A stretch of 32,290 bases of DNA from an uncultured Bacteroidales bacterium. GTDB lineage: Bacteria > Bacteroidota > Bacteroidia > Bacteroidales > FEN-979. The notes below the pieces were generated by a model. That model was not told where the DNA came from. It saw only the letters and a program-made list of their open reading frames with translations, and made no database searches. The number at the start of each line of letters is the position of its first letter. Position 1 is the first letter of the stretch. Positions 1 through 26,906 of the stretch are shown one piece after another. The DNA lies in assembly GCA_903928285.1 (NCBI GenBank), contig CAIYQH010000620.1:1-32290 (forward strand), written 5' to 3'. A program made the position numbers and the translations under genes.

Positions 1-1
1 C

Positions 2-64
2 AATGCAGGCAATGCAGGCAATGCAAACAATGCAAAGAATACTGACAGTGCAGGCAATTTAAAT
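2..64 (+). repeat. Degenerate 9-bp in-frame tandem repeat (about 7 units, AATGCAGGC-like), encoding an N-A-G type low-complexity linker
   Basis: Units are 2-10 and 11-19 aatgcaggc (identical), 20-28 aatgcaaac, 29-37 aatgcaaag, 38-46 aatactgac, 47-55 agtgcaggc and 56-64 aatttaaat. The array is in frame with the downstream propeller ORF and may continue upstream of the window. Confidence 0.7.
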
Positions 65-2029: not shown

Positions 2030-3811
2030 ATGAAAACAAACGGCAGGGTTGGATTCTGGCGTCGCCTAGCGGCGTTCTGGATCGATCTATTCGTTATCTA
2101 CTCGCTGGCAAAGGGGGGCATCGTATTGCTGTCGCTGATGGCCTACCGGATTCCCTTTGAAGCCCTGTTTATTGTCTCCGGAGCCATTTATTCGGTAACC
2201 ATGCTTTCATGGTACCGGCAAACAGCAGGCAAGATGCTCCTGAAAATGGCGGTAACCGAAAAAAAGGACGAACCGGTTCATTTCAGGGATATCCTGCTGC
2301 GAGAGGTTTTCGGCAAATGGGGAACAACCCTGTTGCTACCGGTCCTCCTGGGAATGCTTTTTATGAAGGGCCGCTGGCTCCCTACGGTTTCCGCCCTCGA
2401 AGTCATGGTGCCGGTGGCATTGGTAAATTTAATTTACTACCTGTTTGCCAAACGAACCTGGTATGATGTTCTGGCAGGGATGACCATGAAAAGGGATCCG
2501 GAGCTGAAAAAGGTTAAAACCGGTTTTATTATCCTGGTCGCTTCCGCCCTCCTGGGAATAGGTACAACCTCGGCCGAGTTCCTGGTAACGGGCCGCATTC
2601 CCTGCCGTATGGCTGCTTTCCAGAGTTTCACCTCTGCAAAACCCTATGTGAGGTTTCTGAAAAAACAAAAGGCAACTCCCGTTGATTACGTGATGGGACT
2701 CTTTGAGAATCATGACGTGGTGGTGCTGTGCGAACGGGCTCACCCGGAGATGACACAGTGGGACTTTATCTTTGATGTTGTTAAGGATCCCCGTTTTATC
2801 GAAAAGGTGGGGCATGTTTTCACCGAATATGGCCAGACGGGCATCCAGGAGGATCTCGATAAATTCATGATGACCGACAGCCTGAACGATACGGAGGTGA
2901 AGGCCAATGTGCTGCACCTGATGCGCAACCTGGGCGTCTGGCCATCATGGACCAATAATAACTTCAACCTTTACCTGAACCGGCTCTATCACCTGAACCA
3001 GACCCTGTCGCCCGAAAACCGTATACAGCATCACTTTTCCGACGGGGCCGTCGACTGGTCAGCCATCAGGAGGGTGAGTGATTATAAAAAATACCAGAAG
3101 AATATTGTCTGGAACCGCGACAGTATCATGGCCGGAACGGTCATCACGGGAATGAAAAACATTGCCGAAACCTCCGGGAAACCAGCGAAATGCCTTGTTA
3201 TCATGAATTACCGCCATGGTATGGATCTGACCGACCGGCTGCCCTACGTACCCAGGGTAAACGCCTATGAATTCATGGAAGACAGTTTTGGCAACCGTGC
3301 AGCCAATGTGCTGATCAATACCAGGTTCCTCCTGTCGGTTCCCCTGGCGGGCGGCGTTTGGGATGCCGCCTTTGAGCAAAACGGTAACAGGGCGGTGGGC
3401 TTTGATTTCAGGGGATCGCCCTTTGGAATTTGCGGTTTTGACCTGTTTCCGTTTAACAACCTGCTCAAACCGGGCCATACCCCTTCGTCGAACGGCTCGC
3501 TGCGGTACAGGGATGTATTTACAGGCTTTGTATTTACCCACCCAGTGAAGGATCAATACCTTCAATCCAATATTGCCGGTTATTTTGACGGTTTTGAAAC
3601 TGAATATATCCGCAGGATGGCATGCCTGGATCCCGGCTATAAGCAGGCAGCCGAAGAGGAGATGAAAGATCTCCGTAACCGGGATGCCGACGGGATCAGG
3701 AAGCATGTGGAATTCACCATAGAAACAATGGTTGAGCTCTGTTTTTATGGTTTTGCCGCAATTGGCCTGCTGATCGGCCTGGGGGTGTTTCCCTTCAGGA
3801 GGTTTATATAA
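2030..3811 (+). CDS. RDD-family membrane protein fused to a large (about 400 aa) uncharacterised domain with a C-terminal TM anchor
   Basis: The N-terminus has RRLAAFWIDLFVIY, TAGKMLLKMAV and KRTWYDVLAGMTM, which is the RDD pattern with 3-4 TM helices. The C-terminal domain contains HDVVVLCERAHPE and CLVIMNYRHGM motifs. The final hydrophobic helix is ELCFYGFAAIGLLIGLGVF. Confidence 0.7.
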   Translation: MKTNGRVGFWRRLAAFWIDLFVIYSLAKGGIVLLSLMAYRIPFEALFIVSGAIYSVTMLSWYRQTAGKMLLKMAVTEKKDEPVHFRDILLREVFGKWGTTLLLPVLLGMLFMKGRWLPTVSALEVMVPVALVNLIYYLFAKRTWYDVLAGMTMKRDPELKKVKTGFIILVASALLGIGTTSAEFLVTGRIPCRMAAFQSFTSAKPYVRFLKKQKATPVDYVMGLFENHDVVVLCERAHPEMTQWDFIFDVVKDPRFIEKVGHVFTEYGQTGIQEDLDKFMMTDSLNDTEVKANVLHLMRNLGVWPSWTNNNFNLYLNRLYHLNQTLSPENRIQHHFSDGAVDWSAIRRVSDYKKYQKNIVWNRDSIMAGTVITGMKNIAETSGKPAKCLVIMNYRHGMDLTDRLPYVPRVNAYEFMEDSFGNRAANVLINTRFLLSVPLAGGVWDAAFEQNGNRAVGFDFRGSPFGICGFDLFPFNNLLKPGHTPSSNGSLRYRDVFTGFVFTHPVKDQYLQSNIAGYFDGFETEYIRRMACLDPGYKQAAEEEMKDLRNRDADGIRKHVEFTIETMVELCFYGFAAIGLLIGLGVFPFRRFI

Positions 3812-3828: not shown

Positions 3829-6186
3829 ATGATGATTACCGCACAGCATATTACCGAAAAAGTTGACCAGATCGTCGCCCGGCACGGGGTGGCGGCGGAT
3901 GCCGTGATTCCCATCCTGCAGGATATCCAGCAGGCATTCAACTATCTGCCGGCAGAAGCGCTGAAACGGGTTTGTGAAACAACCGATATAACCCCATCGC
4001 GCATCTCAGGGATCTCCACCTTTTACAACCAGTTCCGTCACCAGCCGGCAGGGGTGCACCGCATCCAGGTATGTACAGGGACCGCCTGCCATGTGAAGGG
4101 AGCCCAGTTTGTCTATGAGGCCTTCAGGCGGGAGCTAAAGCTGAAGGACCACGAAGATACCGATGCCGCGATGCTCTTCACCATCGAAAAGGTAGCCTGC
4201 CTGGGCTGCTGTACCCTGGCTCCTGCCATCAGGGTCGATGAGGTTACCTATGGCCATGTTGAACCTGAAAAAGTTGGGGAGATCCTGAAGGATTTCCTTA
4301 CGAAAAACCAGACGGGGAGCGATACCGGCTTTGAGGTTAGAGGAAACAGAAAAGACTACCAGGGAGAAATACGCATCGGTCTCGGCTCATGCTGCGTGGC
4401 AAGCGGCAGCGCCGAGGTGAAGTCGGAACTCGAAAAAACCCTCTCAAGGGCGAACATCAGGGCCAATGTGCAGCAGGTTGGCTGCGTGGGAATCTGTAAC
4501 CAGGTACCCATTATGGAGATCATCAAACCCGGCGAATTACCTGCCTTTTATGCGAAGATAAAACCGGAGGAGGTCAGGGAGGTGCTGCTCAGCCATTTTA
4601 AACCGGAGGGTTATTATAACCGCATGCGCAACGGCTTCTTTAATATTTTTGATAACCTGCTGGCCGATGGCGCCCCGAAATCGTTCAGGAAATATATGGG
4701 CGAACAGCGCGACAGTCCGCTTTCAAAATTCCTGGGTCCACAGGTCAACATCGCCACAGAGAACAGGGGAGTGACCAACCCTGTTGATCTTCAGGGGTAC
4801 CGCGCAACAGGCGGGTTTGAATCCCTGATGAAATGCCTTAACACGATGTCACCGCAACAGGTGGTGGAGAAGATCGGCAGCAGCGGATTACGCGGACGCG
4901 GGGGCGCGGGATTCCCGACAGGCCTGAAATGGCAGATGGTCAGGGATGCGGGGGCACCTGAAAAATTTGTGATCTGTAACGGCGACGAGGGCGACCCGGG
5001 TGCCTTTATGGACCGTGTGCTGCTCGAATCCTATCCTTTCCGCATTATCGAAGGGATGCTGATTGCCGCCTATGCCACCGGGGCGACCCATGGCCTCTTT
5101 TACATCCGGGCTGAGTACCCGCTGGCCGTGATGCGGATCACAGAAGCCCTCGATACCTGCAGGAAAAACGGGATTGTCGGAGCCAATATCCTGGGGTCGG
5201 GATTTTCTTTTGAGATAAGGGTCTTTGGCGGAGCCGGAGCCTTCGTTTGCGGGGAGGAGACCGCCCTGATCGCCTCAGTCGAAGGAAACCGGGGACTTCC
5301 GCGGATGCGGCCGCCCTATCCCGTTGAAAAGGGATTGTGGGGCAAACCCACCCTGATCAACAATACCGAAACCCTGTCGATGGTTCCCTGGATCATTCAT
5401 CACGGGGCACCCGCCTTTGCTGCGATCGGAACAGCCGGCAGCAAGGGGACAAAGGTCTTTGCCCTTGCCGGGAAAGTCAAGCGGGGCGGCCTGATCGAGA
5501 TCCCGATGGGGATCACCATCCGGCAGATTGTGGAGGAGATTGGCGGGGGCATTGCCGGGGATAAACAATTCAAGGCCGTTCAGATCGGCGGCCCATCGGG
5601 AGGTTGTCTGCCCGCCTCATCCGCCGGGATGCCGATCGATTTTGAAGCGCTGAAACAGGCCGGAACCATGATGGGCTCCGGGGGACTGATTGTGCTGGAC
5701 GAGTCGGACTGCATGGTCGACATGGCCCACTACTTCCTCTCCTTTACCCAGAACCAGTCGTGCGGAAGATGTACCTTCTGCCGGATCGGGACCCGCAGGA
5801 TGCTCGAACTGCTCGACAAAATCAGGAACGGTCACGGCACAATGGATGACCTGAAAAATCTGGAAAAACTTGCTGTAAGCATAAGCCGCGGAAGCATCTG
5901 CGGCCTCGGCAAGACAGCCCCCAACCCGGTACTCACCACGCTTCATTATTTCCGCGATGAATATGAAGCCCATCTCGAGGGACATTGTCCTTCGGGCAGG
6001 TGCCTGCCGCTGATTCATTACGAGGTTGACAAAAGCTGCATCGGCTGCACCAAGTGTGCACAACGCTGTCCCTCAGATGCAATTGCCTTTAAACCTTATG
6101 AAGTTCACGCGATTGACCTTGAGAAATGTATAAAATGCGATATATGCAGGCAGATTTGCCCGGTAAATGCCATCACAGTTCACTGA
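3829..6186 (+). CDS. Fused NuoE-like [2Fe-2S] / thioredoxin-like ferredoxin / NuoF-like NADH- and FMN-binding / 2x[4Fe-4S] ferredoxin protein (HydB/HndC-type, 51-kDa-subunit family)
   Basis: NuoE-type cysteines are VCTGTACHV and VACLGCCTLAP. A second Cys-bearing Trx-like segment has GSCCVASGS and VGCVGICNQVP. NuoF signatures are GLRGRGGAGFPTGLKW, CNGDEGDPGAFMDR, and CGRCTFCRIG plus ICGLGK. The C-terminus has CIGCTKCAQRCP and CIKCDICRQICP. Confidence 0.9.
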   Translation: MMITAQHITEKVDQIVARHGVAADAVIPILQDIQQAFNYLPAEALKRVCETTDITPSRISGISTFYNQFRHQPAGVHRIQVCTGTACHVKGAQFVYEAFRRELKLKDHEDTDAAMLFTIEKVACLGCCTLAPAIRVDEVTYGHVEPEKVGEILKDFLTKNQTGSDTGFEVRGNRKDYQGEIRIGLGSCCVASGSAEVKSELEKTLSRANIRANVQQVGCVGICNQVPIMEIIKPGELPAFYAKIKPEEVREVLLSHFKPEGYYNRMRNGFFNIFDNLLADGAPKSFRKYMGEQRDSPLSKFLGPQVNIATENRGVTNPVDLQGYRATGGFESLMKCLNTMSPQQVVEKIGSSGLRGRGGAGFPTGLKWQMVRDAGAPEKFVICNGDEGDPGAFMDRVLLESYPFRIIEGMLIAAYATGATHGLFYIRAEYPLAVMRITEALDTCRKNGIVGANILGSGFSFEIRVFGGAGAFVCGEETALIASVEGNRGLPRMRPPYPVEKGLWGKPTLINNTETLSMVPWIIHHGAPAFAAIGTAGSKGTKVFALAGKVKRGGLIEIPMGITIRQIVEEIGGGIAGDKQFKAVQIGGPSGGCLPASSAGMPIDFEALKQAGTMMGSGGLIVLDESDCMVDMAHYFLSFTQNQSCGRCTFCRIGTRRMLELLDKIRNGHGTMDDLKNLEKLAVSISRGSICGLGKTAPNPVLTTLHYFRDEYEAHLEGHCPSGRCLPLIHYEVDKSCIGCTKCAQRCPSDAIAFKPYEVHAIDLEKCIKCDICRQICPVNAITVH

Positions 6187-6187
6187 T

Positions 6188-7819
6188 ATGGTAAAATTAA
6201 CCATCGATCAGGTTCCTGTTGAGACCCTGGAAGGGGTAACCATCATGGAAGCAGCTGCCTCCGTAGGAATCTCCATTCCCTCCATGTGCTATAAACCGGG
6301 ATTTTCAAATCATCCCTCCTGCATGGTATGCATGGTGAAGGAGGTGAACCGCGACCAGTTCCTTCCCTCCTGTGCCATGCCGGTTTCGGAGGGGATGAAC
6401 ATCCTTACCGCGAGTGCAGAGGTAGCGGAGGCCCGCAAAGAGGCGCTGGAACTGCTGCTCAGCGACCATATCGGCGATTGTGAAGCCCCGTGCCGGCTCA
6501 CCTGCCCGGCCTTTATGGATATTCCGTTGATGAACCGCCTGATAGCCGGCGGCGATTTTTCAAGGGCGCTGAAAATCGTCAGGGAGGAGATCGCCCTGCC
6601 GCTGATCCTGGGATTTATCTGCCCGGCGCCATGCGAAAAGGCCTGCAAAAGAAAGACCATCGATTCGGCAGTCTCCATCTGCCTGTTAAAACGTTCAACC
6701 GTTCAGCAGGATGAACAGGCCGGTAACACTTTTCCTGCTCCGGCTGCAACCAATGGGAAACAGGTTGCCATTATCGGCACCGGGCCCGCCGGTCTTGCAG
6801 CAGCTTTTTACCTGCTCCGGTCGGGCCATGGCTGTGTATTGTTTGACAAGACTGAGAAGGCCGGCGGCACCATGCGGTATGGGATTCCCGCTGAACACCT
6901 CCCGGAAGAGGTCCTGGATGCCGAAATTGGCATTATCAACCATATGGGGGCTGAATTCCGATTAAATACCACTGTTGACGCAGAGTACTTCAATGCCGCG
7001 GTTTTACCCGTATTCGATGCGGTCATCCTGGCCAGCGGGCGCCAGGATTCAACGCTGGCTGAGCTCTTTGGCATCCAGCCAGATGCGGCGGGCTCTTTTA
7101 TCGATAAAAAACAGTTCACCACCAGCCTCCCCGGTGTGTTCGCCTGTGGCAATGTTATCAGGGAACAGCGAATGGCGGTTCAATCGGTTGCCCAGGGGAA
7201 GATGGCGGCCCTGGAGGTTGAAAAGTACCTGGGGACACATCATCAACAACCGATGAATGAAAAGCCGGGAAATACGGCATTAACTCGGGGCGACATGGCA
7301 CCACACAAGAGAAGTTCCGTGTCGGTAACCGGCCACCTGTTTGAAACGGAATGGCAGGAATATTTGAAGGAAAGTACAAGAGACGACTGGGTAATCCCTA
7401 CCGGGGATGTAATGGGCAGCTTCACCAGGGAAGAGGCCATCAGTGAAGCAAAGCGATGCCTGCATTGCGATTGCCGCAAACCGGCGAGCTGCAAACTGAG
7501 GCATTATTCCGACGAATACGGGGCCAGTCGGAAGCGGTATGCCGGGCCCGACAGGAAAGGGATCACCCGGTCGATCGAGCACGAAACGGTAGTCTATGAA
7601 AAGGAGAAGTGTATTCGTTGCGGGTTGTGTGTTGAATTCGCGGAGGCGAAAGGGGAACCGATTGGGCTTACCTTTGCCGGAAGAGGTTTTGACGTGCATA
7701 TAACGGTACCCTTCGGCGAAACCATTCGCGAAGCGCTAACCGTTGCAGCGACAGTATGCGTGGAGGCGTGCCCTACGGGTGCCCTGGCATTCAGAAACCA
7801 AGAGGAAAGAGACATCTGA
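6188..7819 (+). CDS. Fe-S flavoprotein: NuoG-like N-terminal [2Fe-2S] + GltD-like (glutamate synthase small-subunit-like) Fe-S/FAD domain + C-terminal Cys clusters
   Basis: I chose the start at ATG 6188 (MVKLTIDQ...), 1 nt after the upstream TGA; the ORF-track start at 6167 would overlap by 20 nt. The 2Fe-2S motif is an exact C-x10-C-x2-C-x13-C (C34, C45, C48, C62). The GltD N-terminal pattern is CEAPCRLTCP...ICPAPCEKAC. There is a single dinucleotide fold, VAIIGTGPAGLAAAFYL...AGGTMRYGIP, and a C-terminal FAD motif, LPGVFACGNV. Late clusters are CLHCDCRKPASC and CIRCGLCVEF...CVEACPTG. Confidence 0.8.
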   Translation: MVKLTIDQVPVETLEGVTIMEAAASVGISIPSMCYKPGFSNHPSCMVCMVKEVNRDQFLPSCAMPVSEGMNILTASAEVAEARKEALELLLSDHIGDCEAPCRLTCPAFMDIPLMNRLIAGGDFSRALKIVREEIALPLILGFICPAPCEKACKRKTIDSAVSICLLKRSTVQQDEQAGNTFPAPAATNGKQVAIIGTGPAGLAAAFYLLRSGHGCVLFDKTEKAGGTMRYGIPAEHLPEEVLDAEIGIINHMGAEFRLNTTVDAEYFNAAVLPVFDAVILASGRQDSTLAELFGIQPDAAGSFIDKKQFTTSLPGVFACGNVIREQRMAVQSVAQGKMAALEVEKYLGTHHQQPMNEKPGNTALTRGDMAPHKRSSVSVTGHLFETEWQEYLKESTRDDWVIPTGDVMGSFTREEAISEAKRCLHCDCRKPASCKLRHYSDEYGASRKRYAGPDRKGITRSIEHETVVYEKEKCIRCGLCVEFAEAKGEPIGLTFAGRGFDVHITVPFGETIREALTVAATVCVEACPTGALAFRNQEERDI

Positions 7820-8949
7820 TGATTTTAAAAACTAATTACCGCTACCACTTATCCCTATTCTTCTGCCTGTTCGGATGGATCCTCGCCAACGGGCAGCCGC
7901 AGGGCCCCGACTGCTGGCCCTCATTCCGCGGCAATGCACGGCTGACGGGAAATGCACCTGTAGTCCTGAAACCGCCATTCCGCCTCCTGTGGACCTTTAA
8001 AACGGGCGATGCCATTAAATCCTCGCCGGTAATCTGCAACGGCACGGTCTATATCGGGTCCAATGATGGTTTTCTCTATGCCCTGACCTCCGCGGGGAGC
8101 CTGAAATGGAAGTTCAATGCCTCAACCGCCATAGAATCACCCCCGCTGATCGTTGAAAATACCATCTATGTCGGATCCCTTGAGGGCATCCTCTTTGCCC
8201 TTGATGCCAATACCGGTATCCTGAAATGGAAATATAAAACCGACGGCCAGATCTCGGGATCGGCAAGCCAGGCCATCAGGATGAGCACTAAAAAGAGTTG
8301 TATCCTGGTAGGAAGTTATGACTTCAGTCTCCATTGTGTTGATGCAGCCTCAGGGAAGGGAATCTGGAAATATGAATCAGGGAATTATATCAACGGGGCC
8401 CCTGCCGTTAGCGGCAACCTCGTTGTTTTCGGAGGATGCGACGGGTTGCTGCATTTGCTGGGGGTGGAGGATGGAAAACAGATCGATCAGGTTGATGTTG
8501 GCACCTATATCCCTGCTTCAGCTGCAATCCCGGTCGACAAGGCTTTTTTTGGAAATTACGACGGGGTATTCTATTGTGTGGATATCCGGCTGAAAAAAAT
8601 CATCTGGCAAACCGAAGGTGGTGGCCCTTTCCTTGCCTCGCCGGCGGTATCGGCAGGGAAGGTCGTTACCGGATCGCAAAACCGCTGTATTTATTGTTTT
8701 GATGCTGCAAGCGGGAAGGAGTTATGGAAATTTAAAACGAACGGGAAGGTTGATGCCTCCCCGGTCATTGCCGGGGATCATGTGGTCGCCGCATCGGCCG
8801 ATGGCAGGATCCATCTGCTGGATATCAGCAACGGAACCGAGAAATGGAGTTATGAAATCGGCAGCCCTGTTTTCAGCACGCCGGCCGTAACCGCAAAAAT
8901 GATCGCTGTTGGCGCCGGCGACGGGAAGGTATATGTTTTCGGGCAATAG
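7819..8949 (+). CDS. Secreted PQQ-like / BamB-like beta-propeller repeat protein
   Basis: I chose the start at ATG 7819 (MILKTNYRYHLSLFFCLFGWILANG), which gives a signal peptide and overlaps the upstream stop (ATCTGATG). Repeated blades are GSLKWKF, GILKWKY, GKGIWKY, KKIIWQT, GKELWKF and TEKWSY. Confidence 0.8.
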   Translation: MILKTNYRYHLSLFFCLFGWILANGQPQGPDCWPSFRGNARLTGNAPVVLKPPFRLLWTFKTGDAIKSSPVICNGTVYIGSNDGFLYALTSAGSLKWKFNASTAIESPPLIVENTIYVGSLEGILFALDANTGILKWKYKTDGQISGSASQAIRMSTKKSCILVGSYDFSLHCVDAASGKGIWKYESGNYINGAPAVSGNLVVFGGCDGLLHLLGVEDGKQIDQVDVGTYIPASAAIPVDKAFFGNYDGVFYCVDIRLKKIIWQTEGGGPFLASPAVSAGKVVTGSQNRCIYCFDAASGKELWKFKTNGKVDASPVIAGDHVVAASADGRIHLLDISNGTEKWSYEIGSPVFSTPAVTAKMIAVGAGDGKVYVFGQ

Positions 8950-9014
8950 AGGAACTTGCCGTTCACAGAAAGGATCGATCTCATTTTACCAAATAAGGAA
9001 TAAAGAAGGAAAGT

Positions 9015-10304
9015 ATGAAAATCGTCAGCATCGTCCCGGGTTTCGGAGGTACCTTTTATTGTGGCAACTGTCTGCGTGACAGCGCCTACGTGCAGTCGTT
9101 ACGGGATGCAGGACATGATGCCATGATATTGCCCATGTACCTCCCGCTGACCGCCGGCCTGGAGCCGAAGGATGACGGGTTGCCGGTGTTTTACGGGGCC
9201 GTCAACATTTACCTGAGACAGCAGTTCCCCCTGTTCCGCCATATGCCGGGATGGATGGAGCGTTTTTTTGATTCAACGCCGTTATTGAAATTTGCCGCAG
9301 GGAAATCGGGTTCAACCCGCGCCAAAGGACTGGAAAAGCTCACCGAATCGATGTTGATGGGCGAGAAGGGGTTTCAGCACAAAGAGCTGGATCACCTGGT
9401 CGAATTCCTAAAGCACCATCAGAAACCTGATATTGTCCATTTTTCAAATGCGCTGCTGCTGGGTATGGCCCGGAGGATCAGGGAGGAGGTTGGCGTGCCG
9501 GTTATCTGTTCGCTGCAGGATGAGGATGTGTGGGTTGATGCCATGGAGGCGAGCTGGGTTGACAGGATCTGGCAGCTGATGGCTGAAAAGGGAAGGGATG
9601 TGGATGCTTTTGTGGCGGTAAGTTCCTGGTTTGCCTCCATAATGCAGGACAAGATGAACATCCCGCAGGACAAGATGCATGTAATCCCTATCGGTGTTGT
9701 TCCGGAACAATATATAGTTACGTCGCCCGCTGCCTCGCCGCAGGCCATCGGATATTTGTCGAGGATCAGTGAAGAAAATGGCTTTGAAGTGCTGATGGAT
9801 GCCTTTATCCTGCTGAAACGACAGCCACGGTTCAGCGACCTGGTTTTGATCGCCACGGGCGGGATGACGGGCGACGACAAGCCTTTCCTGAACCGCCAGC
9901 TGCAGAAGCTCGACAAGATGAATCTTCGTCATTTTTTTACTATCCTGCCCGATTTCAACACAGGAAACCTGCCGGAATTTTTCAGGAACCTGTCGGTACT
10001 GACGGTCCCTGTGTTGAAGGGGGAGGCCTTCGGACTGTACCAGCTTGAAGCGCTGGCATCAGGGGTCCCGCTGGTGCAGCCCCAACTGGGGGCATTCCCC
10101 GAAGTGATCGGTTTGACAGGAGGTGGGGTAATTTATCATCCAAATACAGCGGAAATGCTGGCATCCAAACTGGCGGAGGTGCTTTCCAATCCTGACCGGC
10201 TCAGCCAAATGGGCCTGGCAGGAAGGAGATCGGTGGAAGACCATTTCGACAGCAGAAAGCTCACAAAAAGAATGCTGGAGCTTTACCTCCAGGTTGCCCT
10301 GTAA
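9015..10304 (+). CDS. Glycosyltransferase, GT4 (GT-B fold, group 1) family
   Basis: The C-terminal EX7E-type region GEAFGLYQLEALASGVPLVQP is present, and the length (429 aa) and layout fit. The N-terminus carries an unusual FYCGNCLRD motif. Confidence 0.8.
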   Translation: MKIVSIVPGFGGTFYCGNCLRDSAYVQSLRDAGHDAMILPMYLPLTAGLEPKDDGLPVFYGAVNIYLRQQFPLFRHMPGWMERFFDSTPLLKFAAGKSGSTRAKGLEKLTESMLMGEKGFQHKELDHLVEFLKHHQKPDIVHFSNALLLGMARRIREEVGVPVICSLQDEDVWVDAMEASWVDRIWQLMAEKGRDVDAFVAVSSWFASIMQDKMNIPQDKMHVIPIGVVPEQYIVTSPAASPQAIGYLSRISEENGFEVLMDAFILLKRQPRFSDLVLIATGGMTGDDKPFLNRQLQKLDKMNLRHFFTILPDFNTGNLPEFFRNLSVLTVPVLKGEAFGLYQLEALASGVPLVQPQLGAFPEVIGLTGGGVIYHPNTAEMLASKLAEVLSNPDRLSQMGLAGRRSVEDHFDSRKLTKRMLELYLQVAL

Positions 10305-10324: not shown

Positions 10325-11032
10325 TTGTTAATCCATTTATTCATGATGCTTGCAGAACTCCGGAATATTTCCAAATCATATGGCACCCAGGGAAAGGGCA
10401 ATCTGGTACTGGACCAGGTTTCCCTGGCGATCGGGGAGAACGAGTCGCTGGCCATCACAGGCCCGTCTGGCTCGGGAAAAAGCACATTGCTGAATATCCT
10501 GGGAACGCTCGATTCGCCGGGTTCCGGGGAGGTTATCCTGAATGGAACCAATGTCAGCCTGTTTACCGCGAACGGACTGGCCGCAATCCGCAACCGGTTC
10601 ATCGGCTTTGTTTTTCAGCAGCATCACCTGTTGCCACAACTCACGCTGATCGAAAATGTGCTGTTGCCTTTGATGCCGGTCAGAGACAGGGTAAACCGCA
10701 AAGATGGCGAGGAACGTGCCCGTCGTCTGCTCGACAGGGTCGGGCTTGCCGGAATGATCCATCGCCGGCCTGCGAATTTGTCGGTGGGCGAATGTCAGCG
10801 GGCAGCGGTGGTAAGGGCGATGGTTAACCAGCCGAAGCTGCTGCTGGCGGATGAACCAACGGGTTCGCTCGATGCCGGCAATGCCATGCAACTTGGGAAA
10901 TTGCTGGCAGAGCTGAATCTTGAACAAAAACTTGCCGTGGTGGTGGTAACGCATTCGATGGAGATTGCCATGCGGATGGGGAAAATCTATCAGCTTGCCT
11001 CCGGGAAAATTACCTTGCTGGAAAAATCATGA
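10325..11032 (+). CDS. ABC transporter ATP-binding protein (MacB/LolD/FtsE-like family) with non-canonical signature motif
   Basis: Walker A is GPSGSGKST, Q-loop FVFQQHHL, Walker B LLLADEPTGSLD and H-loop VVVTHS. The signature reads LSVGECQR instead of LSGGQ. Likely true starts are Met 10343 or 10346 (MMLAELRNISKSY). The stop overlaps the next start (ATGA at 11029). Confidence 0.9.
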   Translation: MLIHLFMMLAELRNISKSYGTQGKGNLVLDQVSLAIGENESLAITGPSGSGKSTLLNILGTLDSPGSGEVILNGTNVSLFTANGLAAIRNRFIGFVFQQHHLLPQLTLIENVLLPLMPVRDRVNRKDGEERARRLLDRVGLAGMIHRRPANLSVGECQRAAVVRAMVNQPKLLLADEPTGSLDAGNAMQLGKLLAELNLEQKLAVVVVTHSMEIAMRMGKIYQLASGKITLLEKS

Positions 11033-14000
11033 GCAGGATCCGATTTTTACTCCGCAACCTTTGGTTCTACCGTAAACCCTACCTGGCTGTTGCGGCCGGT
11101 GTGATGGTAAGTACCGCGGTACTCACCGGTGCCCTGATCGTCGGCGATTCGGTAACATTCAGCATGCGGCGTTATACCGATGTCAGGCTGGGATCCATTC
11201 GGTACTCCTTGCCGCAGGGGGAGCGGTTTTTCAGGCAGGAACTGGCGCATGAAATATCTTCGGAAACCCATATCCCGGTTGCCCCTGCCATCCGGTGCGG
11301 GGCCATTGCCATCAACAGTGATAAGAATCAGAGGATCAACCAGGTTGAAGTAATTGGGATCGACAGCCGGTTTACCGGCTTCTGGGACCGGTTGCTGCCG
11401 GTGCCAAAAGAGGACGAAGCCATCATCAGCAGTAATGCGGCAGAGAAACTGGGAGTGAAAACCGGCGAAGAGATGCTGCTTCGTATTCAGAAGGTGGGGA
11501 AGACCCCTGCCAACGCCCCATTTTCAGCGGAAAAGGAGGCTTCCGTATCGGTGCGGCTGAAAGTTGCCGGCATCGCCCGTGAAGAGCAAATGGGCCGATT
11601 CAGCCTGAGAAGCAATCAAACGGCTCCTTACAACATTTTCATCTCTTTGCCGCAGATAACCTCCATGTTGGGAATGACCGGGTATGCCAACCTGCTCGTT
11701 ACAGGCGATAATGGAGGAAAGAAAGCCGATCTGGTCACTTGTGGCAATGCGCTCCGGGCCTGCTGGAAACCTGAGGATGCCGGACTGCATTTCACCGCCC
11801 TGACCGGTTCAGACAGCTTATGGGAAATTACCAGCGACCGCATCTTTTTTGATGACTCCACGGCCGGTGCTATTGAATCTGCCATCCCGCAATGCGGTGC
11901 TGTATTGACCTACCTCGTAAATGCCATCTCCGCCAACGGAAAAGTTACCCCCTATTCGTTCGTAACGGCTGCCAATGAAGCCTTTCTGCATGAAACTCCC
12001 GGTCCCGGGGAGATCCTCGTCAATGAGTGGCTGGCGCAGGACCTGGGAATCGGTAGCGGCGACAGGGTATCCCTGCGTTATTTTATCATGGGACCGTTGC
12101 GGACGATGAAGGAGGACAGTACGTTTTTTCAAGTCAGAAGAGTCATTCCTGGCAAAACTCCCCCGGGAGATCCTCAGCTGATGCCCGGTTTCCCGGGAAT
12201 GTCGGACGCCGGGAACTGCCGTGACTGGGAAACCGGCGCGCCAATTGATCTGAAAAAGATACGGGATAAGGATGAACGCTATTGGAAAAATTTCAGGGGA
12301 ACGCCGAAAGCCTTTATTTCTCTAGAAACCGGGAAAAAAATCTGGAATAACAGGTTTGGACACCATACTGCATTCAGGTTTCATGCAACCCAAAAGGAGC
12401 TTGCCGGGATAAAATCCCGGATAATGGAAAAACTCCGGCCGGAACATTTTGGACTCACCTTTCAGCCGGTATACCAGGAGGGACAAGCGGCGGCAGGCCA
12501 TTCAACAGATTTCGGCCAGTTGTTCCTCAGCCTGAGCTTTTTTATCATCCTGAGCGCGTTACTGCTGACAGCCATGCTGTTTGCCATGCTTGCACGCTCG
12601 CGTTTGGCTGAAACAGCGATCCTTGCCACTACCGGTTTCCGCAGGCAGCAGATCTTCGGTATGCTTGCAGCAGAGTCGTCGCTGGTAGCCGTTGCCGGCG
12701 CCATCCCGGGTGTCATTGCCGGGATCCTCTACAACAAAATGGTGATTTTCGGATTAAATACCCTCTGGTACGATGCGGTAAACACCTCCATGGTGGTGAT
12801 GGATATCGAACCGGTTACGCTGTTATACGGGATATTATCAGGATTGGGCATTTCCCTGCTGGTTTTGATCGCCGTGCTGGCGATAAATCTCCGCAACCCA
12901 CTGGCATCGATGGTAAAAGGGACCTATGGTATACAGGATGTTGCCGGTTCCCGTAACGCCAGGTTGTGGACCTTTATTACAGGCCTGGTTTCCATTGCCG
13001 GTGCCCTGGCCCTTATCCTGCTACTGTTGATCCATAGACAAACCATGGATGTTGCCCTGTTCCTCACCGCCGGGGCATTACTCCTGATGGGGCTGCTGTG
13101 CCTGCTGGATTTCTTGCTGATCCGGGAAACCATGAAAGAAACGGATACCATCAATAGGTTCCCGGAACTGGTTGTAAAAAATCTCGTGTTGAACCGGAAA
13201 AGAACCATGGCAGTCGTTACGTTGCTGGCGCTGGGAACCTTTACCATTGTGATCACCGGGGCAAACAGGAGGACCTTTTACGGGACCGAATCAAGCCGCA
13301 GTTCGGGAACGGGTGGGTTCCTGTTCTGGACTGCGACAACGATTCCCATCCTGAATGACCTGAATACGCCTGCCGGGGCCAAACGCTACGGGTTGGAGGA
13401 TGAACCGCTGCTGCGGCATGTACGGTTCATCGAGCTGACCCGCATGGATGGCGATGATGCCAGCTGCCTGAATCTGAACCAGGTTTCCCGGCCTGCCCTG
13501 CTTGGCGTGCCACCGCAGTATTTTAACAAAGTACATGCCTTCAGCTTCAACAGTCTGCTGCCAGCAGCCAACCATCAATCACCCTGGAAAACCCTGCAGA
13601 ATCCCCTTGCGCCGGATATGATCGCGGGGTTTGCCGACCAGACCGTAATCACCTGGGGATTACAGAAAAAAACCGGGGATACCCTCTTTTACAGGGATGA
13701 ATCGGGAAAAGTATTAAAAGTCAAGTTGATAGGAGGATTGGACAATTCTGTTTTCCAGGGAAACATCCTGGTTTCCGACAGCCTTCTGCGCCTGTTTTAT
13801 CCTTCCGCAGGGGGTTCGCGCGTCATGCTGGTCGATGGCCCCGCATTCCTGAAAGATACCCTTGCCTTACGGCTCGAGTCGCTCTTCCGCGACCAGGGAA
13901 TGATGATCACCACCACCGCGGCAAGGCTCGCCACCTTTAATTCGGTGGAGAACACCTACCTGTCGGTATTTATGTTGTTGGGAGGATTGGGGGTGATTAT

Positions 14001-14334
14001 CGGTACCATTGGGCTGGGGATCGTGATTATGCAGGCAATCCGGCAGCGGAAACGGGAATTTGCCATCTACCTTGCATTAGGATTTACAGGTAAATTTATC
14101 TTCAGGCTGATCGTGGCGGAACATGTTGCCATGGTGTTGTCTGCCATATTCATCGGGGGAGTCGCTGCCCTGGCAGGCATCCTCCCCTCACTCATTTCAC
14201 AGGGTTATTATTTGCCAGGATTTTTCCTCACCGGGATCCTCCTGGTGTTGATTGGAAACGGGCTGCTGTGGATCATCCTTGCAGGCAGGGCCGTGATGAA
14301 AACCGATCTCCTTCAGGGTTTAAGGGAGGAATAA
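11029..14334 (+). CDS. Large FtsX-family ABC permease with two FtsX/MacB-type modules (YbbP-like architecture)
   Basis: The protein is 1101 aa. It has an N-terminal TM (LAVAAGVMVSTAVLTGALIVGD), a long extracytoplasmic segment, a TM cluster around residues 495-620, a second extracytoplasmic segment, and a C-terminal TM cluster (LSVFMLLGGLGVIIGTIGLGIV...). It is translationally coupled to the ATPase. Confidence 0.85.
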   Translation: MSRIRFLLRNLWFYRKPYLAVAAGVMVSTAVLTGALIVGDSVTFSMRRYTDVRLGSIRYSLPQGERFFRQELAHEISSETHIPVAPAIRCGAIAINSDKNQRINQVEVIGIDSRFTGFWDRLLPVPKEDEAIISSNAAEKLGVKTGEEMLLRIQKVGKTPANAPFSAEKEASVSVRLKVAGIAREEQMGRFSLRSNQTAPYNIFISLPQITSMLGMTGYANLLVTGDNGGKKADLVTCGNALRACWKPEDAGLHFTALTGSDSLWEITSDRIFFDDSTAGAIESAIPQCGAVLTYLVNAISANGKVTPYSFVTAANEAFLHETPGPGEILVNEWLAQDLGIGSGDRVSLRYFIMGPLRTMKEDSTFFQVRRVIPGKTPPGDPQLMPGFPGMSDAGNCRDWETGAPIDLKKIRDKDERYWKNFRGTPKAFISLETGKKIWNNRFGHHTAFRFHATQKELAGIKSRIMEKLRPEHFGLTFQPVYQEGQAAAGHSTDFGQLFLSLSFFIILSALLLTAMLFAMLARSRLAETAILATTGFRRQQIFGMLAAESSLVAVAGAIPGVIAGILYNKMVIFGLNTLWYDAVNTSMVVMDIEPVTLLYGILSGLGISLLVLIAVLAINLRNPLASMVKGTYGIQDVAGSRNARLWTFITGLVSIAGALALILLLLIHRQTMDVALFLTAGALLLMGLLCLLDFLLIRETMKETDTINRFPELVVKNLVLNRKRTMAVVTLLALGTFTIVITGANRRTFYGTESSRSSGTGGFLFWTATTIPILNDLNTPAGAKRYGLEDEPLLRHVRFIELTRMDGDDASCLNLNQVSRPALLGVPPQYFNKVHAFSFNSLLPAANHQSPWKTLQNPLAPDMIAGFADQTVITWGLQKKTGDTLFYRDESGKVLKVKLIGGLDNSVFQGNILVSDSLLRLFYPSAGGSRVMLVDGPAFLKDTLALRLESLFRDQGMMITTTAARLATFNSVENTYLSVFMLLGGLGVIIGTIGLGIVIMQAIRQRKREFAIYLALGFTGKFIFRLIVAEHVAMVLSAIFIGGVAALAGILPSLISQGYYLPGFFLTGILLVLIGNGLLWIILAGRAVMKTDLLQGLREE

Positions 14335-14785
14335 AAAAATTCATATGCGAAATCTTGAATTTCAACAGTTTTTACCTGTCACGCCTGCGGAGGCCTGGAA
14401 GTTTTTCAGCAATCCCGCCAATCTTGGCAGGATCACCCCCAAAGCGATGAACTTTATGATATGGTCGAAAATGCCCGAAAATATCTACCCGGGACTGATT
14501 ATCAGGTACACCGTTTCACCCATGTTCCATATTCCCCTGAACTGGGTCACCGAGATAACCCATGTACGGGAACCCTTTTGCTTTGTAGATGAACAGCGTT
14601 CGGGACCCTATGCGATATGGCATCATGAGCATCATTTTGAAGAGGTGCCCGGCGGGGTGATGATGACCGACAAATTGTTCTATAAGGTCCCCTTCGGGCC
14701 GATCGGCAAACTGGCCGACCTGTTGTTCGTACACCGGAAGGTGGAGGGGATTTTCAGTTACCGCAGCCGTATTCTGGAAAACGGG

Positions 14786-17068
<2,283 letters not shown>

Positions 17069-23707: not shown

Positions 23708-24394
23708 TCATCCCTTTACAACATCCCCCGAAATTTTCCCGTCCTCCAGGGTGATCACCCGCCTGGCTTTCGCAACCACCCTTGAATCGTGGGTGGAAAA
23801 AATAAAGGTGATGTTCTCCTCCCGGTTGAGCTTCTCCATGATCTCCAGCAGGTTTTCGGCCGATTTTGAATCCAGGTTGGCAGTGGGCTCATCGGCCAGG
23901 ATAAACTTGGGTTTTGAAGCCAGCGCCCGCGCCACGGCAACCCGTTGCTGCTGGCCTCCCGACAGTTTATTCGGACGGGTGTTGATCTTTTCGCCCAAAC
24001 CTACCGATCTCAGCAGTTCGAGGGTTCGCAGGTCGCGCTGTACTTTGCCCACTCCCTGCAGCTGCATGATGAATTCCACGTTCTCCTTTGCCGTCAGTAC
24101 GGGGATAAGGTTGAAGGATTGGAATACAAAGCCGATGTTCCTCATCCTGAAATCGATCATCTGTCTCGATTTTAACCGGGTAATGTCGATGTTGTCGATC
24201 ACGATCTCACCTGAGGTTGGCGTATCAAGGCCGCCTATCAGGTTCAGCAGTGTCGTTTTTCCCGATCCCGAAGGGCCGACAATGCTGGTGAATTCGCCCT
24301 GGCTGAAGGCCAGATTTATCCCGTTCAGCGCGACAACCGGGATGGTTTTGACATCATATACCTTGCTCAGGTTCCGGATTTCAATAATGTTCAT
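23708..24394 (-). CDS. ABC transporter ATP-binding protein (LolD/MacB-like)
   Basis: Walker A is GPSGSGKTT, Q-loop FVFQSFNL, canonical signature LSGGQQQRVAVARAL, Walker B FILADEPTANLD and H-loop FIFSTHD. Confidence 0.92.
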   Translation of the reverse strand: MNIIEIRNLSKVYDVKTIPVVALNGINLAFSQGEFTSIVGPSGSGKTTLLNLIGGLDTPTSGEIVIDNIDITRLKSRQMIDFRMRNIGFVFQSFNLIPVLTAKENVEFIMQLQGVGKVQRDLRTLELLRSVGLGEKINTRPNKLSGGQQQRVAVARALASKPKFILADEPTANLDSKSAENLLEIMEKLNREENITFIFSTHDSRVVAKARRVITLEDGKISGDVVKG

Positions 24395-24436
24395 AGGTTC
24401 GTTGTTATGTTTTTCTTTATTCCGCTGGACTTTTTC

Positions 24437-25657
24437 TTAGTCCACCCTGATCGCCTCCACAGGGTTTAGTTTCAGCGCTTTTCGCGCCGGCATCACGGCC
24501 GAGAGGATCCCGGTGAAGAAGATCATCCCGGTGAGGTTGACATAAAATTCACGGCTGATGAAGGGGTATATCTTCGGATCAAAGCCGAAGGCTCCCAGCC
24601 CTTTGGAAAAGGATGACATGTCGATTCCCCGCTGGTGGAAAAAGCTGACCAGGGCAAAACTGACCGCCATCCCGACCATCCCCCCGAAACCGGTGAGGAA
24701 TAGGGTTTCCATCATGATCATCCGGAATACCCGTGATTTGCTCATCCCCACGGCCATCAGCATGCCCAGTTCATGCGTGCGTTCAAAAACGATCATCAGC
24801 ATGGTGTTGACAATGCCGAACGCGAGTGCAAACAGAATGATTCCCAGGATGATGTAAACCTCGATGGCAATGGCCGAGGTAATCATCCCCATGTCGGGCC
24901 GGAGTTCCATCCAGTTTTGGACGAGCAGGCCGGGCAACTGTTTTTTCATGGATGCCTCTGACGCGGGGATATTTTCAATTTCCCGCAGCATCAACGCGAT
25001 CTCCTGGATGCCGTTGTCGCCGCCGGTAACCAGGTCAAGATCGCTTTTTTTTACGAAGAGATTTGTTTCGTCAAAAACGGTATTGGCTGTCTGGAAGATG
25101 CCGTTTACCGAAAATGCCGCCTCGGTCAGGTTCCCGTCGGTGTTCTGAAAACGGAGCACCACCTTCGACTTCAGCCTGACCTTGAGTTTGTCGGCCAGTT
25201 TCCGGCCGATCACCAGCTGGTTCCTGCGGCTGCCGGTGAAATACCCGCCACTGCTGTCGGGAATGGTTGAAAAGAGAGAACTTACCTGCTTCTCCCGTTC
25301 CGGATCAACCCCGATGATCTGGATCCCGGCGGCTGAATTGGGGGAGGCTGCCATGCCGGTGATCCGGGTCCTCAGACACACCGCCTTCACTGCGGGCATC
25401 TTCGCGATGTTTTCTGCTACAGTGCCGGCATCCGGGATGACAAAGCGGGATTCGAAATTCCTCAGGAATCCGGGATGATGGAGCTGGATATGGGAAACTT
25501 CGTTGTTGATGCCGGTCCGGATCTTCTGTTCAACCATCCCGGTGATGATGGAGGCGGTGAAGATCCCCCCGGCCAGTCCCAGCGTTATCGCGGTAATCAC
25601 GATAAGGCTCCGGACCTTGTTTCTCCACACATTCTTAAAAGCAATTTTAAAGAGCAT
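24437..25657 (-). CDS. FtsX-family ABC permease (LolC/LolE-like), paralog 2
   Basis: The protein is 406 aa. It has an N-terminal TM (RSLIVITAITLGLAGGIF), a periplasmic domain of about 220 aa, and three C-terminal TMs with the FtsX-style motif LMAVGMSKSRVFRMIMMETLFL. Confidence 0.85.
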   Translation of the reverse strand: MLFKIAFKNVWRNKVRSLIVITAITLGLAGGIFTASIITGMVEQKIRTGINNEVSHIQLHHPGFLRNFESRFVIPDAGTVAENIAKMPAVKAVCLRTRITGMAASPNSAAGIQIIGVDPEREKQVSSLFSTIPDSSGGYFTGSRRNQLVIGRKLADKLKVRLKSKVVLRFQNTDGNLTEAAFSVNGIFQTANTVFDETNLFVKKSDLDLVTGGDNGIQEIALMLREIENIPASEASMKKQLPGLLVQNWMELRPDMGMITSAIAIEVYIILGIILFALAFGIVNTMLMIVFERTHELGMLMAVGMSKSRVFRMIMMETLFLTGFGGMVGMAVSFALVSFFHQRGIDMSSFSKGLGAFGFDPKIYPFISREFYVNLTGMIFFTGILSAVMPARKALKLNPVEAIRVD

Positions 25658-25680
25658 GATGATCGCGGTTAAGTTGTTTA

Positions 25681-26901
25681 TTATTTATGCAACGCCTCAG
25701 CCACCCTGAGTTTGAAGATCCTCCGTACAGGGTAGATACAGGTAACGGCGACAATCGCCAGGACGATTACCACGTTCGACAGGATAAATCCCGGTTTCAG
25801 GGCAAGCGGCATCAGGGGCTCGATGCCGTAACTGATAAAGGCCTGGGCCATGTTGCCCCACAGGCGGAGGGGGTTGAGGTAAAAGTAGATCATGATGGGT
25901 AAGGCGACAGCTACTCCTGAAATGATGCCTGTAAGGCCGATGAACAGCATTTCAAGCGTCAGGATGGTGGCCAGCCTGCTTTTCTGCATCCCTACCGATA
26001 CAATCACACCGAACTCCCGGGATCGTTCGTTGGTCATCATGATAACCGTGCCAAAGATCCCGAAACCGACGATCATGTATAGGATGGCAATGATGATCAT
26101 CCCGCCTGCCGTTTTAACCTTCAACTGCTGCATGATCTCCACCATCATCTCATCCCAGCGCATGATCTCATAATTCCCGCCGGGGGTTTTAGCCTTTAAT
26201 TCGGCCTGGGTGTTATCGATTTCGTCAGGGTTTTTCAGGGTGACAGAGAGGGAGGTTATCCGGTTTCCGGCGCTGAAAAAATCCTGGGCGGTCGCCAGGT
26301 TCATATAGACCATCTGGTTGTTGAGCTGGGGAGAAGGGAAATGGAGGATCCCCGATACGGGGAACTTACCGGCGGCGCTTTGCCCGTGAAACCCTTGTCC
26401 CAGCAGCACCAGGCTGTCGCCGGTCTTCAACTCTAAAAACGATGCAAGCCCTTCGGCTACCAGGATCCCGTTTCCGGCATGATCGAGATATTTGCCGTTG
26501 ACTACCTTGGCGGAAAGATGGGTAAGGGCATCCTCCTGCGACGGGTCGGTCCCTGAAAGCAATACACCTTTGGTCTGTTTGCCGAAGGAAGAGAGAGCAA
26601 AATATTCCAGCCGCGGTACGGTTTTATCGACATTCTTCGCGGTATTGACCAGGCTGGTCAGGGAGTCGTTGAATTCGATGGAGTTATTGATATCGCGGTC
26701 GTCCCAGTATCCCTTTTTATGGATCTGGATATGGCCGGAATAGGACTGTACCACGATATTGGTGAGGTTGTCGAACCACCCGATCTGCAGCGATCTTACG
26801 ATCAGCGCCAGAAAGATGGCCAGGAAAATGGATGCCGCAGTGAGCAGGGTCCTGCGTTTGTTCCGCCAGATATTGCGCCATGCAAGCCTGATATCATTCA
26901 T
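25681..26901 (-). CDS. FtsX-family ABC permease (LolC/LolE-like), paralog 1
   Basis: The protein is 406 aa, the same length and layout as the neighbouring permease. Motifs are RRTLLTAASIFLAIFLALIV and VSVGMQKSRLATILTLEMLFI. Confidence 0.85.
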   Translation of the reverse strand: MNDIRLAWRNIWRNKRRTLLTAASIFLAIFLALIVRSLQIGWFDNLTNIVVQSYSGHIQIHKKGYWDDRDINNSIEFNDSLTSLVNTAKNVDKTVPRLEYFALSSFGKQTKGVLLSGTDPSQEDALTHLSAKVVNGKYLDHAGNGILVAEGLASFLELKTGDSLVLLGQGFHGQSAAGKFPVSGILHFPSPQLNNQMVYMNLATAQDFFSAGNRITSLSVTLKNPDEIDNTQAELKAKTPGGNYEIMRWDEMMVEIMQQLKVKTAGGMIIIAILYMIVGFGIFGTVIMMTNERSREFGVIVSVGMQKSRLATILTLEMLFIGLTGIISGVAVALPIMIYFYLNPLRLWGNMAQAFISYGIEPLMPLALKPGFILSNVVIVLAIVAVTCIYPVRRIFKLRVAEALHK

Positions 26902-26906
26902 CGTAT

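Follow-up and report, generated by a model that had tools for sequence, protein, structure and literature searches.

A shortened NfnA/StnC-like subunit and its BfuC-BfuB partner, encoded with NapGH-like proteins and exported propellers, as a candidate NADH input arm of an envelope redox system

In this study, we analyzed a 32,290-nucleotide stretch of DNA from an uncultured Bacteroidales bacterium (contig CAIYQH010000620.1; here called the window), which belongs to a metagenome-assembled genome (MAG) of 620 contigs with 86.7% completeness and 5% contamination. Two adjacent forward-strand genes in the window, gene 1 (3829-6186, 785 amino acids [aa]) and gene 2 (6188-7819, 543 aa), are predicted to encode a BfuC-BfuB fusion and a shortened, NfnA/StnC-like BfuA, respectively. 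On balance we favor a role for the pair as the cytoplasmic electron-input arm, for NADH and probably also for ferredoxin, of an envelope redox system encoded by the same operon. Within this reading we infer the docking on a NapH-like protein, the direction of electron flow, the bifurcation or confurcation, and the acceptor. The proposal is made because a complete Bfu core occurs together with an A subunit that lacks a nicotinamide site and with a tight, ancient coupling to a NapGH-like module and propellers.

Enzymes of the Bfu family combine a constant bifurcating BfuBC core with a variable BfuA subunit, on which the identity of the third substrate depends (Schut et al. 2022, PMC9304861). We took the definitions of the Bfu sites from PMC11829005 and PMC9304861 and mapped residues to them by alignment. 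Gene 1, as judged by Pfam, PDB sequence matches and a tree, contains in order a NuoE-like [2Fe-2S] domain for cluster C1 (2Fe-2S_thioredx, residues 13-155; 3865-4293), a second thioredoxin-like stretch, again recognized as 2Fe-2S_thioredx, that is the B5 domain (4369-4602), the FMN/NADH domain (Complex1_51K, residues 351-520; 4879-5388), an SLBB domain, the B1 [4Fe-4S] region (NADH_4Fe-4S, residues 631-715; 5719-5973) and a 2x[4Fe-4S] tail for B3/B4 (residues 735-783; 6031-6177). Pfam thus confirms the fusion of NuoE-like, second thioredoxin-like, NuoF-core and ferredoxin-like parts that had been read from the sequence in the original prediction. The B2 3Cys-1His site was located by alignment (C628, H715, C720, and C725). 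In an alignment of 63 operon-linked homologues, the ligands of C1 (C82, C87, C124, and C128) and of B1 (C645, C648, C651, and C691) are kept in all 63 sequences, and those of B2, of B3/B4 (C737-C747 and C767-C777), and of B5 (C188, C189, C219, and C223) in 62 or 63. The B2, B3/B4, and B5 sites are absent from non-bifurcating NuoF homologues (PMC11829005, PMC9304861). Since none of the ligand sets of the bifurcating core has been lost, the sequence identifies gene 1 as a BfuC-BfuB fusion of the bifurcating type.

The relatives of gene 1 point the same way. Residues 181-784 align over their full span to the NfnB, StnB, and HydB sequences of the PDB (E values of 1e-170 to 2e-208), consistent with the HydB/HndC-type arrangement, paired with a GltD-like subunit, that had been proposed. 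Thermococcus sibiricus NfnB ranks first (9n5u_B; E = 2e-208), followed by NfnB of Caldicellulosiruptor saccharolyticus (9bov_B), StnB of Sporomusa ovata (8oh5_B), and the HydB subunits of NiFe- and FeFe-hydrogenases. Identity between the gene 1 core and NfnB/StnB is about 60 to 65%. The pair reaches neither the NuoF nor the NuoE equivalog cut-off of NCBIfam (463.7 for gene 1 against 558.65 for the NuoF model TIGR01959). A 2,770-bp contig of the same MAG (C395; L095) holds another copy of gene 1 that shares 83% identity with that of the window; in the tree it is nearly identical to the orthologue of another Bacteroidales MAG (L003), and it probably represents a co-binned contig from a second population rather than a true paralogue.

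Gene 2 follows at the predicted distance of 1 nucleotide (gene 1 TGA at 6184-6186, gene 2 ATG at 6188), and this start is favored because homologues begin at the same Met. Pfam, phmmer, and an AlphaFold2 (AF2) model agree on its NfnA/StnC-like character. It starts with the A1 [2Fe-2S] domain (Fer2_4; 6188-6433), in which C34-x10-C45-x2-C48-x13-C62 is an exact NuoG-type motif, followed by an NfnL/GltD-type pair of [4Fe-4S] clusters with Lys168 (Fer4_20, the GltD/DPD Fe-S domain; 6470-6697), an FAD domain that lacks the NAD(P)H domain (6755-7237), a linker of low confidence in the AF2 model (7250-7306), and a NuoG-like 2x[4Fe-4S] region (7430-7792; Fer4_Nqo3 at residues 475-540). The protein has a single FAD Rossmann fold (residues 199-239) and a single GxGxxG. 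The NuoG-type and GltD-type motifs, the one FAD fold, and the additional Cys clusters recognized earlier are therefore all present. Its best PDB matches are the A subunits 9bov_A, StnC (8oh5_C), and 9n5u_A. With StnC, phmmer aligns it in two pieces, residues 2-290 to StnC 4-292 and residues 273-534 to StnC 423-672, such that some 130 residues (StnC ~292-423), comprising the second Rossmann fold, are absent; the junction lies at about 7037-7087. In StnC and NfnA this second fold binds NADPH (PMC10482914). Gene 2 also ends at the equivalent of StnC residue ~680, StnC being 1,172 aa long, and neither the FdhF-like tail of about 500 residues nor a Molybdopterin Pfam domain was found in it.

An electron wire FAD-A7-A6-A3-A2-A1 has been described for NfnA (PMC11829005). 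By alignment, gene 2 keeps this wire, which leads to B1, in its entirety, but neither the nicotinamide site nor the dead-end domain with A4/A5 is left. It is no transhydrogenase subunit, and NADP(H) cannot be the third substrate because the NAD(P)H domain has been lost. Hence, the kinship to bifurcating NADH/ferredoxin/NADP-type enzymes claimed in the original prediction holds in that NfnABC and Stn are the nearest relatives, but the NADP-type chemistry is excluded.

The shortened form, of ~520 to 550 aa, is widespread. More than 100 database proteins of 503 to 602 aa are 57 to 85% identical to gene 2 over its full length, and we collected 80 genome loci encoding it from at least eight phyla (Bacteroidota, Planctomycetota, Acidobacteriota/Aminicenantes, Latescibacterota, KSB1, Lentisphaerota, Thermodesulfobacteriota, and MAGs labeled Actinomycetota; MAG taxon labels as deposited). 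The missing NAD(P)H domain is thus a conserved trait of the family and no local accident. All Fe-S Cys residues are invariant across an alignment of 80 sequences, including C34, C45, C48, and C62 of A1 and C424, C427, C429, and C435 together with C475, C478, C481, and C528 of A2/A3. Likewise invariant are the Gly residues of GxGxxG (G197, G199, and G202), G226/G227, and K168. The latter corresponds to K170 of StnC (alignment offset, +2), which in StnC and NfnA is a Lys ligand of the flavin-proximal [4Fe-4S] cluster and is strictly conserved in StnC (PMC10482914, PMC11829005). StnC R239, which adjoins the FAD and is required for activity (PMC10482914), is replaced by H237 in gene 2 and by H, M, R, T, or K in its relatives.

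A fold comparison is consistent with this assignment. The AF2 model built from the 80-sequence alignment (predicted local distance difference test score [pLDDT], 89.5; predicted template modeling score [pTM], 0.88; an earlier model from 24 sequences with a pLDDT of 58.9 was discarded) superimposes on NfnA/StnC with template modeling scores of 0.77 to 0.79 when normalized to the query and 0.38 to 0.47 when normalized to the target. The next class of matches, NfnI-L and GltD, reaches 0.39 to 0.42. No curated NCBIfam model scores above its cut-off on gene 2, the best model giving 395 bits against a cut-off of 916.

The proposed phylogenetic placement of the NuoF-like core was carried out as a quick IQ-TREE analysis of 35 B-subunit cores (26 operon-linked sequences, five from the PDB, and the paralogues of this genome), with the nuo-linked NuoF-like gene of contig C219 of this genome as the outgroup. 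The operon-linked BfuB sequences form one clade (SH-like approximate likelihood ratio test [SH-aLRT], 100; stem, 0.42) that joins NfnB/StnB with an SH-aLRT of 92, apart from the HydB subunits of FeFe- and NiFe-hydrogenases. A sister relation to NfnB/StnB is likely but not settled, because the node of 92 carries no star and the tree contains long branches. In terms of sequence features, the pair belongs to the Bfu family throughout: BfuB has the NADH/FMN domain, B1, B2, B3/B4, and B5, BfuC has C1, and BfuA has A1, A2, and A3. Of the four features that define Nfn/Stn, the Lys ligand is present and the NAD(P)H Rossmann domain, R239, and the FdhF-like domain are missing. The two dinucleotide domains of GltD/NfnL are reduced to the FAD domain, and the Fe_hyd_lg_C domain expected of HydABC is found neither in gene 2 nor in the window. 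The pair therefore stands next to Nfn/Stn with a different domain composition, and it does not cluster with a characterized enzyme of identical composition. Schut et al. 2022 (PMC9304861) assigned no function to 17 BfuB clades and predicted quinone-linked Bfu enzymes ("Nuo-Bfu"). We found no description of the truncated A-subunit architecture or of the operon in the literature; within the literature found, the short BfuA family and its operon constitute a previously undescribed relative of NfnABC/Stn.

The genomic context adds a second line of evidence. We clustered the mechanically called open reading frames (ORFs) of the 80 loci with the window (81 sequences in total) and found a conserved same-strand order: a PQQ propeller that may be present or absent, an NHL propeller, a poly-ferredoxin, a Fer4_5 membrane protein, a PQQ propeller of ~610 aa, gene 1, gene 2, and a PQQ propeller of ~375 aa, continued in Bacteroidota by a GT4 glycosyltransferase, an ABC ATPase, and a double-FtsX permease. 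When 54 loci with at least 7.5 kb of upstream flank were searched by tblastn, gene 1 was present in 53, the gene for the membrane protein, which is NapH-like, in 49, that for the poly-ferredoxin, which is NapG-like, in 48, and the NHL propeller gene in 45; upstream genes were missed mostly where inserts push them beyond the fetched flank. All four occur together at each of the 10 loci from outside Bacteroidota. Neighboring genes of the operon are separated by 1-nucleotide gaps or share start and stop codons, as does gene 2 with the following propeller gene (TGATG). In most loci, the ~610-aa propeller gene is flanked by the NapH-like gene and gene 1, and the ~375-aa propeller gene lies downstream of gene 2 in 36 of the 48 loci with sufficient downstream flank. 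In this genome, the upstream genes are located at the end of another contig (C90; L085), the last 25 nucleotides of which are identical to the first 25 of the window and in frame with them, so that the window, as judged from this overlap, begins in the middle of the operon and C90 abuts it. The description of the pair as an orphan without a catalytic partner does not survive this comparison, since the pair is part of a conserved operon with NapG-like and NapH-like proteins and exported propellers, which lie upstream on C90.

The operon partners resemble a known module. A twin-arginine motif (RR-x-F) is invariant in the poly-ferredoxin, which also has a hydrophobic stretch and 16 conserved Cys residues; these features predict a protein exported by the twin-arginine translocation (Tat) pathway with enough Cys for four [4Fe-4S] clusters. 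Two CxxxCP and two CxxCxxCxxxCP motifs are found in the membrane protein, whose matches to NapH/MauN and NosR fall below the cut-offs (for NapH, 54.6 against 213). Its predicted periplasmic face carries a conserved GCxC and Cys191. Although no curated NCBIfam model is above its cut-off for either protein, their motifs identify them as a NapGH/NosGH-like pair.

How might these parts work together? We propose that genes 1 and 2 form a cytoplasmic flavo-iron-sulfur complex of the Bfu type in which NADH would be oxidized at the FMN of gene 1. By analogy with all characterized Bfu enzymes, ferredoxin would probably exchange electrons at gene 1 as well; the set of C1, B1, B2, B5, and B3/B4 is the one that supports bifurcation or confurcation in NfnABC, Stn, and HydABC. 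Electrons would then pass through the cluster chain of gene 2 to its FAD end, which, instead of reacting with NADP+, may contact the cytoplasmic Fe-S domain of the NapH-like protein. The envelope system would consist of this membrane Fe-S protein, the Tat-exported four-cluster ferredoxin, and the NHL and PQQ-type propellers. Electron flow would be directed outward from NADH, with or without reduced ferredoxin, and would end at a periplasmic target reached via the exported ferredoxin or in menaquinone.

Several observations weigh against this proposal. Among the loci compared, no fusion of the cytoplasmic pair to the membrane module was seen. No terminal reductase or other catalyst is evident in the cluster, and the propellers, being similar to BamB or to designed consensus propellers, look like scaffolds. 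Each of the five carrier genomes tested has Men or Mqn genes for menaquinone synthesis, and menaquinone may thus be available as an acceptor; because all five have the pathway, this test does not separate the two end-points. Finally, we know of no transmembrane cofactor chain in NapH-type proteins, for which reason electron export is conjecture. A more specific form of the proposal, which we put forward tentatively and hold to be doubtful, is a cytochrome-free conduit made entirely of iron-sulfur proteins. Here, the Bfu module would confurcate electrons from NADH and reduced ferredoxin to about -400 mV and deliver them via the FAD/Fe-S arm of gene 2, which lacks a nicotinamide site, to the cytoplasmic clusters of the NapH-like protein and from there to the Tat-exported periplasmic ferredoxin.

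Alternatively, the complex may feed the NapH-like protein with electrons that end in the menaquinone pool, which would make it an alternative NADH (plus ferredoxin):menaquinone oxidoreductase like the predicted "Nuo-Bfu"; in that case, menaquinol would pass electrons to the periplasm through the NapG-like ferredoxin, as in NapGH. The annotation of the NapH/NapG family as quinol dehydrogenase, the menaquinone genes in all five carriers, and the prediction of quinone-linked Bfu enzymes by Schut et al. 2022 (PMC9304861) are in agreement with this scenario. On the other hand, the same five genomes all have NuoH, the nuo operon of the present genome has its own NuoF, and the conserved propellers would be left unexplained, and we regard this end-point as unlikely. 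Equally, the pair might form a free-standing soluble enzyme, either an NADH:ferredoxin oxidoreductase or one whose flavin, exposed by loss of the NAD(P)H domain, reacts directly with a small acceptor (e.g., polysulfide, a quinone, O2, or a metal chelate), the genetic linkage then reflecting co-regulation only. The FAD motifs (GxGxxG and GG) are indeed invariant in a protein that has no nicotinamide site left, and reduction of Fe(III) or sulfur is known from homologues such as SfrAB and Nso (PMC7483475). However, a near-universal gene order with translational coupling to NapGH-like genes in at least eight phyla would be unusual for mere co-regulation, and a soluble enzyme of this kind seems improbable to us.

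Two further explanations carry very little weight. An ordinary NADH-dependent ferredoxin:NADP+ transhydrogenase of the NfnABC/Stn type might be expected from the top sequence and fold matches and from the conserved hallmark Lys of StnC. Yet no member of the family has the NAD(P)H Rossmann domain, the equivalent of R239 varies, and the published StnC homologues all measure 955 to 1,241 aa, which makes such an activity scarcely credible. The pair might also serve in trans as a diaphorase or N-module for a hydrogenase, formate dehydrogenase, or nuo complex encoded elsewhere. The genome does offer potential partners: the H-cluster domain of [FeFe]-hydrogenases is matched seven times, and a single NiFe hydrogenase and nuo genes also occur. 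Six NuoF-type domains were counted in it. However, a dedicated NuoF/HydB-like gene adjoins several hydrogenase loci (two on C431, one on C35, and probably one on C89), and in the nuo operon on C219, nuoH lies beside a NuoF-like gene of its own; because of these dedicated subunits, neither these hydrogenases nor nuo need the window pair. In addition, no molybdopterin enzyme was found in this 86.7%-complete genome, and at the 80 loci orthologues of the pair are never found beside hydrogenase, formate dehydrogenase, or nuo genes. A function in trans is therefore very improbable, and we rejected both the missing complex I N-module, in view of the NuoF adjoining nuoH, and the in-trans diaphorase for a hydrogenase or formate dehydrogenase. 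Likewise, a Pfam scan of the entire window detected no hydrogenase, formate dehydrogenase, or nuo gene, in line with the earlier statements that none is nearby and that the pair is neither complex I nor a hydrogenase.

Of the characterized enzymes, NfnABC (C. saccharolyticus, 9bov/9bp5; T. sibiricus, 9n5u/9n5v) and StnABC (S. ovata, 8oh5/8oh9) are the closest. They share with the pair the BfuB core with FMN, B1, the 3Cys-1His site B2, B3/B4, and B5, the C1 cluster of BfuC, and in BfuA the A1 cluster, the NfnL/GltD-type 4Fe-4S pair with its Lys, the FAD domain, and the NuoG-like A2/A3. They differ in having the NAD(P)H Rossmann and FdhF-like domains, the latter of which carries A4/A5 in Stn and mediates the tetramer, whereas in the window pair both are missing, R239 is not conserved, and BfuC is fused to BfuB. 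Furthermore, the NfnABC and StnABC genes stand alone, in contrast to the operon with NapGH-like proteins and exported propellers described here. HydABC and HndABCD have the same HydB/HydC-type core and a NuoG-type N terminus of the A subunit. In contrast to these, the pair has no H-cluster domain and its B subunit branches with Nfn/Stn, while the HydB paralogues of this genome adjoin its hydrogenases. NuoEFG has similar NuoE-like, NuoF-like, and NuoG-N-terminal-like domains, from which the pair is set apart by the extra B2-B5 sites, the GltD-like insertion in the G-like subunit, and the lack of nuo neighbors. The operon partners, for their part, resemble NapGH, NosGH, and MauMN in combining a Tat-exported ferredoxin with four [4Fe-4S] clusters and a polytopic protein with two CxxxCP and two ferredoxin-type motifs, but they score below the NCBIfam cut-offs and the cluster contains no NapA, NosZ, or MauAB. 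To our knowledge, coupling of a NapGH-type module to a cytoplasmic NADH flavoprotein has not been described.

The remaining genes of the cluster in the window all lie on the forward strand. The window opens with the C-terminal 432 of the ~610 residues of a membrane-anchored PQQ_2/BamB-like propeller (Pfam PQQ_2; 2-1300), the N terminus of which, with three predicted transmembrane helices, is encoded on C90. An in-frame 9-bp tandem repeat encoding N-A-G/N-A-N tripeptides (window 1-64; C90 12850-12894) sits in the linker between anchor and propeller of this protein, at the point where the assembly breaks. Pfam identifies the two genes that follow as encoding a MaoC-like dehydratase (1449-1940) and an RDD-family membrane protein (2030-3811). 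Their clusters (c10 and c17) are represented in no more than 6 and 3, respectively, of the 81 sequences, and both genes are variable inserts outside the conserved core. This insertion before gene 1 is seen only in the window and its closest relatives (L001 and L004); other loci have different inserts at the same spot. Downstream of gene 2, an exported PQQ_3/BamB-like propeller of 376 aa (7819-8949; Pfam and PDB sequence search) is so regular that the designed consensus propellers called "Cake" head its PDB matches (E = 1e-151), with BamB next, which suggests a scaffold rather than an enzyme. It is followed by the GT4 glycosyltransferase (9015-10304), the ABC ATPase (10325-11032), and the 1,101-aa double-FtsX permease (11029-14334), all three assigned by Pfam and NCBIfam, and by a small ORF (14345-14824). 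The GT4/ABC/FtsX block, present at 32 to 34 of the 48 loci but at a single one of the 9 that are not from Bacteroidota, is a cluster add-on restricted almost entirely to that phylum. An ordinary MacB/LolCDE-like set on the reverse strand (23708-27656; an ABC ATPase, two FtsX/MacB_PCD permeases, and a LolA-like protein), with a TetR regulator beside it (27743-28339), is unrelated to the giant permease of the cluster.

On C90, the NHL propeller gene (9274-10239) is preceded by four consecutive PQQ_2/BamB-like paralogues of 404 to 476 aa (3979-9190), which brings the cluster in this genome to six PQQ-type propellers, including the two in the window. The NHL propeller carries an F-x-G-C-C-N-P motif with a vicinal Cys pair that is invariant in 38 homologues, and no solved structure or curated family was found to explain it; the NHL and PQQ propellers, when searched against PDB sequences, matched only generic or designed propellers and BamB, which gave no hint at a chemistry. 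Just 5' of the NapG-like gene lies a 61-aa ORF (C90 10251-10433) with a twin-arginine motif and a four-Cys motif (CRRSYACAGCGLSDRC), a segment that elsewhere (e.g., in L008, L011, and L018) is fused to the N terminus of the NapG-like protein. The cluster is longer in Marinifilaceae and a few others, where genes for a Fer4 protein, a radical SAM protein, and a DUF116-polyprenyl synthetase fusion follow (L047 13077-16912, and also L034, L037, L042, L043, and L075).

In summary, the pair amounts to a natural experiment in which an Nfn-type wire appears to have been kept up to the flavin while the nicotinamide site was deleted and a genetic link to a NapGH-like module was established. If the conduit outlined above were real, it would provide the first dedicated cytoplasmic electron donor for membrane polyferredoxins of the NapH/NosR/RdhC kind and a new way to export low-potential reducing power. 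The cluster is widespread in anaerobes of sediments and of the gut type, and its carriers include the cultured Marinifilum flexuosum and Labilibaculum euxinus, which opens the question to bench work. Hence, if the physical link is real, the pair would offer a testable answer to the long-standing question of where the cytoplasmic Fe-S clusters of NapH/NosR/RdhC-type proteins obtain their electrons.

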